Part shown: positions 16,962-18,902 of the stretch, piece after piece
Numbering within the stretch: position 1 is the first letter of the stretch
How the letters are laid out: the number at the start of each line of letters is the position of its first letter
IMG/VR virus record: IMGVR_UViG_2639762844_000003
Direction: 5' to 3' (one strand)
From: a virus
Taxonomy: Duplodnaviria > Heunggongvirae > Uroviricota > Caudoviricetes
Length of the DNA stretch: 47,664 nucleotides
The notes under the pieces: generated by a model
What the model saw: the letters and a program-made list of their open reading frames with translations, nothing else
Database searches by the model: none
Told to the model about the DNA's origin: nothing
Translations under genes and position numbers: made by a program

Positions 16962-17306
16962 ATGACTCAAAAATATGAACTGATTGTGAAAGGGATCCGC
17001 AATTTTGAGAATAAAGTTACGGTAACTTTAGCGTTACGGGACAAAGAACGCTTTGACGGTGAAATTTTTGACCTGGACATCTCGCTGGACCGTGTTGAAG
17101 GTGCCGCGCTGGAGTTTTATGAGGCAGCAGCCAGAAGGAGCATCAGACAGGTCTTCCTGGATGTTGCTGCCGGGTTATGTGAAGGGGATGAGCTGTCGCC
17201 GGAAAAGCGCCCCATAATTTTAGAGGCGCAGAATGTGTGGATAACCTACAAAGGAAAGCTACCGGGAAGAATTACTGGTTCTCTGAAGACTCCGCCGAAA
17301 TGGTAA
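16962..17306 (+). CDS. YdfR-like protein between holin and endolysin
   Basis: 114-aa ORF directly after the holin, as ydfR sits between essQ and rrrQ in Qin. Confidence 0.55.
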   Translation: MTQKYELIVKGIRNFENKVTVTLALRDKERFDGEIFDLDISLDRVEGAALEFYEAAARRSIRQVFLDVAAGLCEGDELSPEKRPIILEAQNVWITYKGKLPGRITGSLKTPPKW

Positions 17307-17476
17307 TTTCACCAGCATATTTTTCTTCCAGTAATACCGCCAGCCACTTGAAAGAATTTTGTTGTTGCTGGGACCATTTGGGGTTGAGTGATTCAAGCTG
17401 GAGCGATGCCAGTGTTGGTTGCATTTGTTCCTTGGGAATTGAGAATTGAAGTGGTCAACAAAAACTGGCCACCGAG

Positions 17477-18295
17477 TTAGAGTTTTTTCCAGTATCGATT
17501 TTCCGATTCGTTTGGTGGTAACCCACCATTATATTCGTGCGGTCTTAGTGCGCTGTAATATCCAACGATATAGTCCGTTATTGCGTGAGCTGCATCGCTG
17601 AAGCTTACATAGCCCGTCGCCGGCACCCATTCGTTCTTCAGACTCCTGAAGAAGCGCTCCATTGGGCTGTTATCCCAGCAGTTTCCACGCCGACTCATAC
17701 TCTGCCTGATCCGGTATCTCCACAGTAACTGCCGGAACTGCCTGCTCGTATAATGACTGCCTTGATCGCTGTGGAACATCACCCCGACGGGCTTACCACG
17801 GGTTTCCCATGCCATTTCCAGTGCTTTCATGGTAAGCCTGCTGTCCGGCGAGAACGACATGGCCCAGCCCACTGGTTTTCTTGCGAACAGGTCGAGAACA
17901 ACGGCGAGGTACGCCCAGCGCTTACCCGTCCAGATATAGGTCACATCACCGCACCACACCTGATTTGGCTCGGTCACGGCGAACTGCCGTTCAAGGTAGT
18001 TAGGGATAGCAACATGTTCATGACCACCACGTTTATACCGGTAAGTCGGCTGCTGACAGCTGACCAGCCCCAGCTCTTTCATGAGTCTGCCAGCAAGCCA
18101 GCGCCCCATCTGGTAGCCTCTCTGGGTTGCCATTGTGGCGATGCTTCTTGCTCCGGCAGAGCCGTGGCTGATGCCATGCAGTTCAAGTACCTGGCTGCGT
18201 AATACAGCCCGTCTGCCGTCTGGCTTTTCAGGACGGTTTTTCCAGTATTTGTAGCTGCTGCGATGGACCCCGAACACATGGCAGAGAGTGGCCAC
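17477..18295 (-). CDS. IS3-family transposase OrfB (DDE integrase domain)
   Basis: 272-aa ORF inside the IS; expressed as an OrfAB fusion by -1 frameshifting. Confidence 0.85.
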
Positions 18296-18321
18296 AGGAT
18301 AACGCGCCCTGAGTTTCCCGA

Positions 18322-18624
18322 TTATCGAGAACTGTTCAGGGAGTCTGACATCAAGAGCGCGGTAGCCTTTTTTAATATTTCATTTTCCATTTCAATACGT
18401 TGTAGCTTTTTCCTGAGCTCACGGATTTCAATTTGTTCCGGGGTAATGGGGGAGGCTTTTGGTGTTTTTCCCTGCCGCTCATCACGTAATTGTTTCACCC
18501 ATCGCGTCATTGTGGAAAGGCCGACATCCATAGCGCTGGCTGCATCTGCCACGGTGTAATTCTGGTCAACGACCAGTTGAGCGGATTCGCGTTTAAACTC
18601 TGCGCTGAAATTTCTTTTTTTCAT
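18322..18624 (-). CDS. IS911-type transposase OrfA (HTH and leucine zipper)
   Basis: [50 protein letters not shown]... matches recalled IS911 OrfA. Confidence 0.85.
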
Positions 18625-18902
18625 TATGGCACCTGTGTTGTTCTGAGGTGAGCATATCACCTCTGTTCAGGTGGCCAAATTCAGTAAACCACTTCAAATG
18701 CCAGATATGAAAATGCGACAGTAAGGGCATTTACATCATCCCGAAGCTTGGAAATGCAGTCGAGCAACTCCTGTAGAGAAATGGTGCTATTGTCCATAAA
18801 CAATCCTCTCTATTGTATTTAACTATTCCTTGCCTGATTCAACAGGCCGGGACAGATAAACATATCCAGGGTTCAGAAACCGATAAATCCTGATAAATAT
18901 CC

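Follow-up and report, generated by a model that had tools for sequence, protein, structure and literature searches.

A complete ISEc52 copy in a conserved antisense gene between ydfR and the endolysin gene of an Escherichia coli lambdoid prophage

The late lysis region of a lambdoid Escherichia coli prophage (IMG/VR record IMGVR_UViG_2639762844_000003, Caudoviricetes), analysed here as a stretch of 47,664 nucleotides to which we refer as the window, carries a complete copy of the insertion sequence (IS) ISEc52 between ydfR and the endolysin gene R, where it splits a 90-codon open reading frame (ORF) on the minus strand, named ORF90 in this study. On the plus strand, the cassette comprises an S21-type holin gene, S (16742..16957; pinholin class, EssD-like; Pfam PF04971, E 8.7e-36, profile positions 1-63 of 64; PHROG holin), a YdfR-family gene (16962..17306; DUF1327, Pfam PF07041, E 8e-43), the lysozyme-type endolysin gene R (18903..19445; Pfam PF00959) with an E35-x8-D44-x5-T50 triad and a signal-anchor-release (SAR)-like N-terminus, an Rz-like i-spanin gene, intact and coding for 178 amino acids (aa) (19442..19978; PHROG 214, E 2e-54), and within Rz an Rz1-like o-spanin lipoprotein gene with an LVGC lipobox (19707..19853; PHROG 456, E 1e-6). 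These Pfam and PHROG assignments agree with an earlier note on this DNA, which had placed the IS between holin/YdfR and a SAR endolysin. Apart from the insertion, everything for lysis is intact here, including holin, endolysin with its triad, and Rz/Rz1.

The cassette resembles S21/R21 of phage 21 in its Phage_holin_2_1 holin, its E-x8-D-x5-T lysozyme with a weakly hydrophobic, Gly/Ala-rich N-terminus, and its nested Rz/Rz1 genes. Residues 7-26 of the endolysin have a mean hydropathy of 1.5 and consist to 45% of Gly, Ala and Ser, and SAR release is predicted from the sequence. The cassette differs from that of phage 21 by two additional genes between S and R, ydfR and ORF90, and now by the IS as well. 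A literature search on YdfR together with holin and endolysin found nothing.

The IS occupies 1250 bp (17447..18696, minus strand), as defined by its boundaries, inverted repeats, length and identity to known copies. Its termini are TGAAGTGG.../...CCACTTCA, the ends reading TGAAGTGGTCAAC... on one strand and TGAAGTGGTTTAC... on the other. The left inverted repeat (18661..18696, minus strand) lies upstream of orfA and has the minus-strand terminal bases TGAAGTGG, the right inverted repeat (17447..17482, plus strand) starts with TGAAGTGGTCAAC..., and a comparison of the two arms showed agreement at 25 of the first 36 positions. The element is flanked by a perfect target-site duplication, AAT, with a left copy at 17444..17446 and a right copy at 18697..18699, where IS-free genomes have a single AAT. 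Both transposase frames are read from the minus strand: orfA (18322..18624) encodes 100 aa with an HTH_Tnp_1 domain (Pfam PF01527, E 6e-14), and orfB (17477..18295) encodes the DDE/rve integrase core (Pfam rve, E 1e-31), expressed as an OrfAB fusion. Conceptual translation placed an A AAA AAG motif for a programmed -1 frameshift at 18367..18373 (minus strand), in X XXY YYZ phase with orfA, and a -1 shift at this motif yields an OrfAB protein of 382 aa; frameshifting is thus predicted from motif and phase. The transposase scored 302.8 bits against the NCBIfam model transpos_IS3 (cutoff 160). Taken together, the traits of the IS3 family are all present, namely the length of 1250 bp, imperfect inverted repeats of the TG...CA type, the 3-bp duplication, two frames with a slippery motif, and the DDE and helix-turn-helix (HTH) domains. 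The earlier note had recognised a 1250-bp IS3-family element with terminal inverted repeats and an AAT duplication, all of which was borne out at the positions given above.

Its label "IS911-like" also holds, and the name can be made more precise. The element is 100% identical over 1250 nt to copies named "IS3-like element ISEc52 family transposase" in RefSeq, of which there are many on chromosomes and plasmids, and 95.0% identical to the mobile_element annotated as "insertion sequence:IS911" in phage Sf6. Judged by these identities, the element is ISEc52, a relative of IS911 and not IS911 itself, and this copy is intact and presumably active. With ISEc52 and IS911 (IS3 family, IS3 group) it shares the length, inverted repeats, 3-bp duplication, A AAA AAG -1 shift, and a 382-aa OrfAB with a DDE/rve core. 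Compared with the known ISEc52, which is an already described element, the copy in the window is itself identical and its sole novelty is the insertion site. The literature on ISEc52 turned up resistance-plasmid surveys only.

To reconstruct the empty site, 16700-17446 was joined to 18700-19500, giving 1548 nt from which the IS and one AAT are removed. At least 11 complete E. coli genomes contain this sequence with 100% identity and no gap along all 1548 nt, and many further genomes match it at 99.9%. Since the empty site is 100% identical in these genomes and the IS is 100% identical to ISEc52 copies, the combination of an IS and a split ORF is not a product of chance, and the duplication of 3 bp, being perfect, speaks against an artefact of assembly. 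Searches of 5,426 complete E. coli genomes, the GTDB species representatives and IMG/VR did not find the exact left IS junction; this indicates that the insertion is recent and private. Moreover, the early 17.4 kb of the prophage match E. coli ACN002, XB2 and GZM7 in one piece at 100.0% identity, and the 25 kb downstream of the IS match IS-free prophages in one piece at 99.2%. In the sequence compared, nothing but the IS sets this prophage apart structurally from its circulating IS-free copies. The comparison with IS-free relatives that the earlier note had suggested as a check gave a positive outcome on both counts, the empty site being found and the ORF of about 90 codons being conserved there. 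An intact ISEc52 has transposed recently into an otherwise intact E. coli lambdoid prophage, generating the AAT duplication.

Removal of the IS and one AAT restores a minus-strand ORF of 90 codons (17272..18797) that starts with an ATG at 18797, preceded by a GAGG Shine-Dalgarno sequence at a distance of 7 nt, and ends with the stop codon 17274-17272. The ATG, the GAGG and the protein sequence quoted in the earlier note stood, and the end of the ORF had to be corrected from 17273 to 17272. In the window, the 5' part (18700..18797, about codons 1-33; PHROG 2411) and the 3' part (17272..17446, about codons 34-90 and the stop) are separated by the IS, both on the minus strand, and the last 35 nt of the 3' part overlap the 3' end of ydfR convergently. 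ORF90 and ydfR therefore converge, overlapping by 35 nt, and ORF90 and R diverge. Between ORF90 and R lies a spacer of 105 bp (18798..18902), conserved as judged by its conservation profile, that holds the GAGG and a weak candidate promoter of ORF90 on the minus strand and the ribosome-binding region of R on the plus strand. The interrupted frame is cut after codon 34: from the right AAT copy it continues for four codons within the end of the IS, where a stop ends it at a length of 38 codons (MDNST...YLAF+EVVY*). The insertion would inactivate ORF90, leaving a stub of 38 residues, and the strain of the window would represent a natural knockout of this gene.

Whether the split ORF is real had been left open in the earlier note, and two other accounts of the site had to be weighed, namely that the 90-codon ORF exists by chance or by annotation only, the IS sitting in a non-coding spacer, or that the real gene across the site is a frame on the opposite strand, co-oriented with the lysis genes. 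The allele set was built from 252 IMG/VR loci with a ydfR-R spacer, those from three further scans for divergent alleles included, which collapsed to 57 unique alleles. ATG, stop and the length of 90 codons were retained in 57/57 alleles at about 75-100% protein identity, with premature stops confined to six singleton alleles, and the GAGG Shine-Dalgarno sequence was conserved. Outside the ydfR overlap and with the divergent alleles included, the variable sites were distributed 21/13/41 over the three codon positions, so third positions dominate, and the ratio of nonsynonymous to synonymous substitution rates (dN/dS, Nei-Gojobori) was 0.26 overall, 0.17 for the N-terminal 47 codons and 0.43 for the remainder. 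ORF90 aligned over residues 1-90 with positions 1-90 of 90 of PHROG 2411, a family of unknown function (E 2.2e-59), is annotated in IS-free genomes by RefSeq as the hypothetical protein WP_000370545.1, and was also called as a gene in phage Chlobot; it is thus already catalogued. Distant homologs of the same size and with the same motif occur in other contexts and in other Enterobacterales, for which conservation of the spacer at the DNA level cannot account, and the AlphaFold2 model is a coherent three-helix bundle with a predicted local distance difference test (pLDDT) value of 77.

Several observations pull the other way, towards a chance ORF or at least towards weak constraint. Among close relatives alone, the variable sites were distributed 8/11/13 and nonsense mutations were present in 3/19 alleles, a sample that is uninformative by itself. 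Several homolog clusters (P0044-P0063) are frameshifted at differing points of the C-terminal half into an alternative frame of 94 aa, reflecting either a weakly constrained C-terminal third or sequencing and assembly errors. Together with the small third-position bias among close relatives, the nonsense and frameshift alleles mean that selection on ORF90 is weak or intermittent. Sequence scans found neither a consensus sigma-70 promoter nor a terminator for ORF90, the upstream spacer containing a weak, partly conserved TTGAAT-N19-TACAAT, read by hand, as a candidate promoter; matches in Pfam, NCBIfam and PADLOC were likewise absent, as was a fold match. Against the allele-wide conservation, the low dN/dS and the distant homologs, these points leave the chance-ORF account very improbable, and we conclude that ORF90 is a real, conserved protein-coding gene whose expression is predicted. 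For the opposite strand the odds are smaller still and close to negligible. After removal of the IS, a plus-strand frame of 109 codons lies antisense to ORF90 (17237-17446 and 18700-18822, GTG start at 17237); in the allele of the window it is open over 125 codons from stop to stop, and its dN/dS of 0.21 would by itself suggest a gene. Inspected allele by allele, this candidate was rejected: it has premature stops in 30/57 alleles, the commonest ones included, its GTG start mutates to GTT or GCG, its stop is not conserved, and its first positions vary less than its second (13 vs 21), which is atypical of coding sequence. The low ratio arises because its third codon positions are shared with those of ORF90, and the frame can serve as a warning for gene calling by dN/dS.

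According to a further proposal of the earlier note, the IS is likely to exert polarity on the expression of endolysin and spanin, leaving the prophage unable to lyse. This part found no support in our analysis, in view of the terminator before S, the full-length Q, the weak hairpins of the IS and the examples of Sf6 and SfII. A Q-like late antiterminator gene of full length (13296..14117, plus strand; 273 aa, residues 1-273 against positions 1-252 of 253 of PHROG 127, E 2e-109) precedes the lysis genes, which follow about 2.6 kb downstream of Q, with tRNAs and accessory genes in between. Directly upstream of the holin gene lies a strong intrinsic terminator (16616..16633, plus strand) with a 7-bp stem containing 5 GC pairs, followed by TTTTTATATT. 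Because the lysis genes are located directly behind this terminator and downstream of Q, they are likely to depend on Q; following the lambdoid late-operon model, S, ydfR, R, Rz and Rz1 would already be expressed only by terminator-resistant, Q-modified polymerase. Between ydfR and R, the IS would lengthen the late transcript by 1.25 kb that are not translated and run antisense to the transposase genes. On its plus strand, the IS carries two weak terminator-like hairpins only, no more than in shuffled sequence, and a Q-antiterminated polymerase that already passes the terminator before S would most likely read through the IS as well. Translational coupling is not lost either: R is translated from a start of its own, and in IS-free relatives 344 nt of untranslated, antisense-coding RNA already stand between it and ydfR. 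R, Rz and Rz1 would still be expressed, with at most a quantitative delay or reduction of lysis.

Strong polarity of the IS on R, Rz and Rz1, by which the prophage could not lyse its host and would be effectively locked in, has arguments of its own. In ordinary operons, polarity is a classical effect of IS elements, Rho could be recruited by the 1.25 kb of RNA that precedes R and is not translated, and the transposase genes are transcribed against the late operon, making transcriptional interference possible. The closest natural parallels come from two phages with IS911. In Sf6, IS911 interrupts ninG, the transposase being encoded on the strand opposite to the pR operon, and ninH, ninI and Q follow downstream; the orientation is the same as here, the operon is antiterminated, a non-essential accessory gene is hit and the phage is viable, and the difference is that in Sf6 the N-antiterminated early-right operon upstream of Q is concerned and here the Q-antiterminated late operon between holin and endolysin. 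Sf6 deletions that remove IS911 did not show earlier or higher late transcription by quantitative reverse-transcription PCR (Dover et al. 2016, PMC5630979), yet they lyse faster (PMC5630979), and some cost to lysis timing is therefore plausible. The late operon of SfII has an antisense IS911 that follows Rz/Rz1 directly and precedes the packaging genes. This IS, too, adjoins the lysis cassette of a lambdoid phage that can be induced and is infective, SfII having been obtained by induction of its host and being able to infect several serotypes (PMC3772137); the position of this IS after the lysis genes differs from that in the window, so that it bears on polarity toward packaging and head genes and not on R/Rz. 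The faster lysis of the Sf6 deletions counts against the read-through account, which draws on the general understanding of Q-modified polymerase and on two phages with IS911 elsewhere, neither of them between S and R. Considering the antitermination of the operon by a full-length Q behind a strong terminator, the chance-level terminator content of the IS, the spacer that already uncouples R from ydfR, and the two viable phages, we regard a prophage that is lysis-dead because of the IS as unlikely. The IS probably does not abolish lysis, and a modest delay or reduction appears the likelier outcome. A recent jump of ISEc52 into ORF90, with the IS being read through and R, Rz and Rz1 still expressed, is in our judgement the likely explanation for the locus as a whole.

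ORF90 belongs to a rare family. An exhaustive profile search against 1.84 billion representative proteins gave 20 hits only, all unnamed. The distant homologs have 81-97 aa and share the motif ELLD..I..LR..VN.L..AF.YL.FS...E.L.PTI.AL.FES. In Escherichia, ORF90 is always found in the slot between ydfR and R, and many otherwise similar phages have holin, ydfR and R without ORF90, such as mEp460 with a ydfR-R spacer of 55 bp. Other family members occupy different sites: P0068 and P0071 lie between the tail genes L and M on the strand opposite to the tail operon, P0066 upstream of DUF1441/terminase on the opposite strand, P0064 next to an AIDA-type autotransporter gene, P0072 as a chromosomal orphan, and P0077 on the chromosome between dinI and bssS. 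The last of these, a distant homolog of 92 aa (E 1e-4, AFSYLAFS motif), was observed on a metagenome contig (locus L265, 3501-3779) outside any obvious prophage, in a neighbourhood that is Enterobacterales-like (rne-pyrC-dinI-X-bssS-solA, X being the homolog).

The ORF90 protein is acidic (isoelectric point 4.3) and presumably soluble, has a mass of about 10 kDa and contains no transmembrane segment. AlphaFold2, run on the 98%-identical cluster representative P0001, predicted three helices (pLDDT 77, predicted template modelling score 0.51); a Foldseek comparison of this model with PDB and BFVD yielded nothing with an E-value under 0.4, and the protein sequence had no match in Pfam, NCBIfam or PADLOC. 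Overall, ORF90 and its relatives would constitute a small, sparsely distributed, uncharacterised Enterobacterales family of about 90 aa, acidic and with three predicted helices, whose genes in prophages are usually found antisense to late genes.

Owing to this distribution, i.e., the position between late-operon genes, the absence from related phages and the homologs in other slots, "moron-like, non-essential accessory gene" may serve as a working description of ORF90, and moron-like expression would be expected. Phage morons include, e.g., bor and lom of lambda and the morons of HK97/HK022, and the concept reportedly goes back to Juhala et al. in 2000 and Cumby et al. in 2012. Like morons, ORF90 is small, wedged between late-operon genes and without counterpart in mEp460, it is often oriented opposite to its neighbours, and the slot taken by its relatives changes from prophage to prophage. 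Unlike morons, no promoter or terminator of its own was found in the scans, the weak TTGAAT-N19-TACAAT excepted. A specific role of the family in the lysogen might be imagined, either through convergent transcription that dampens leaky holin or late-gene activity, or through a protein acting in exclusion, defence or counter-defence, which we consider a long shot; if true, the strain of the window would be a natural knockout of that function.

Beyond annotation, the insertion itself is of little importance: the IS is known, IS hits in prophage accessory genes are routine, and the landing of an IS in a non-essential accessory gene of a prophage is a commonplace event, paralleled by IS911 in ninG of Sf6. 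What the empty-site comparison adds is that the antisense ORF between ydfR and R belongs to a real, selectively maintained gene family and is not an annotation artefact. In addition, where a phage late operon is antiterminated, it is unsafe to conclude from the presence of an IS that the prophage is dead, as the natural counter-examples Sf6 and SfII illustrate. The residual value of the locus lies in the natural knockout of a small, sparsely distributed family placed antisense.

Further observations concern other parts of the prophage and its relatives. In the IS-free relative E. coli 2017.09.02CC (NZ_AP025214.2), Rz (locus L001, 3990-4526) carries a Q46* nonsense mutation and is a RefSeq pseudogene, and Rz of the window (19442-19978) differs from it by that single base. 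Some IS-free copies of the prophage hence carry a lysis-gene lesion of their own. ORF90 is not the only gene antisense in the late operon: a second one, a 230-aa ORF (20147-20839, minus strand) that matches PHROG 13652 (unknown function) over its full length, is located between Rz/Rz1 and DUF1441/terminase.

Upstream of the cassette, between the tRNAs and the holin gene, two plus-strand ORFs (15516-15944 and 16095-16490) encode TolA C-terminal domains (Pfam TolA, E 2e-23 and 1e-14, respectively), and the terminator at 16616-16633 follows them, just before S. In strain HUE1, a copy of ISEc52 adjoins a gene annotated as "cell envelope biogenesis protein TolA". In the nin-like region, a Hok/Gef-family toxin ORF (10836-11048, plus strand; Pfam HOK_GEF, E 3e-23) is presumably part of a type I toxin-antitoxin module of the hok/sok type. 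A 356-aa ORF between the replication genes and the nin-like region (8751-9821, plus strand), with no matches in PHROG, Pfam or PADLOC, is an uncharacterised accessory gene and possibly a defence candidate. Directly downstream of Q, two plus-strand tRNA genes are located at 14261-14336 (CAT) and 14442-14518 (TCT), the former being a tRNA-Met according to ARAGORN but annotated as tRNA-Ile in the RefSeq relative, and this order of Q and tRNAs matches that of Stx-type lambdoid phages.

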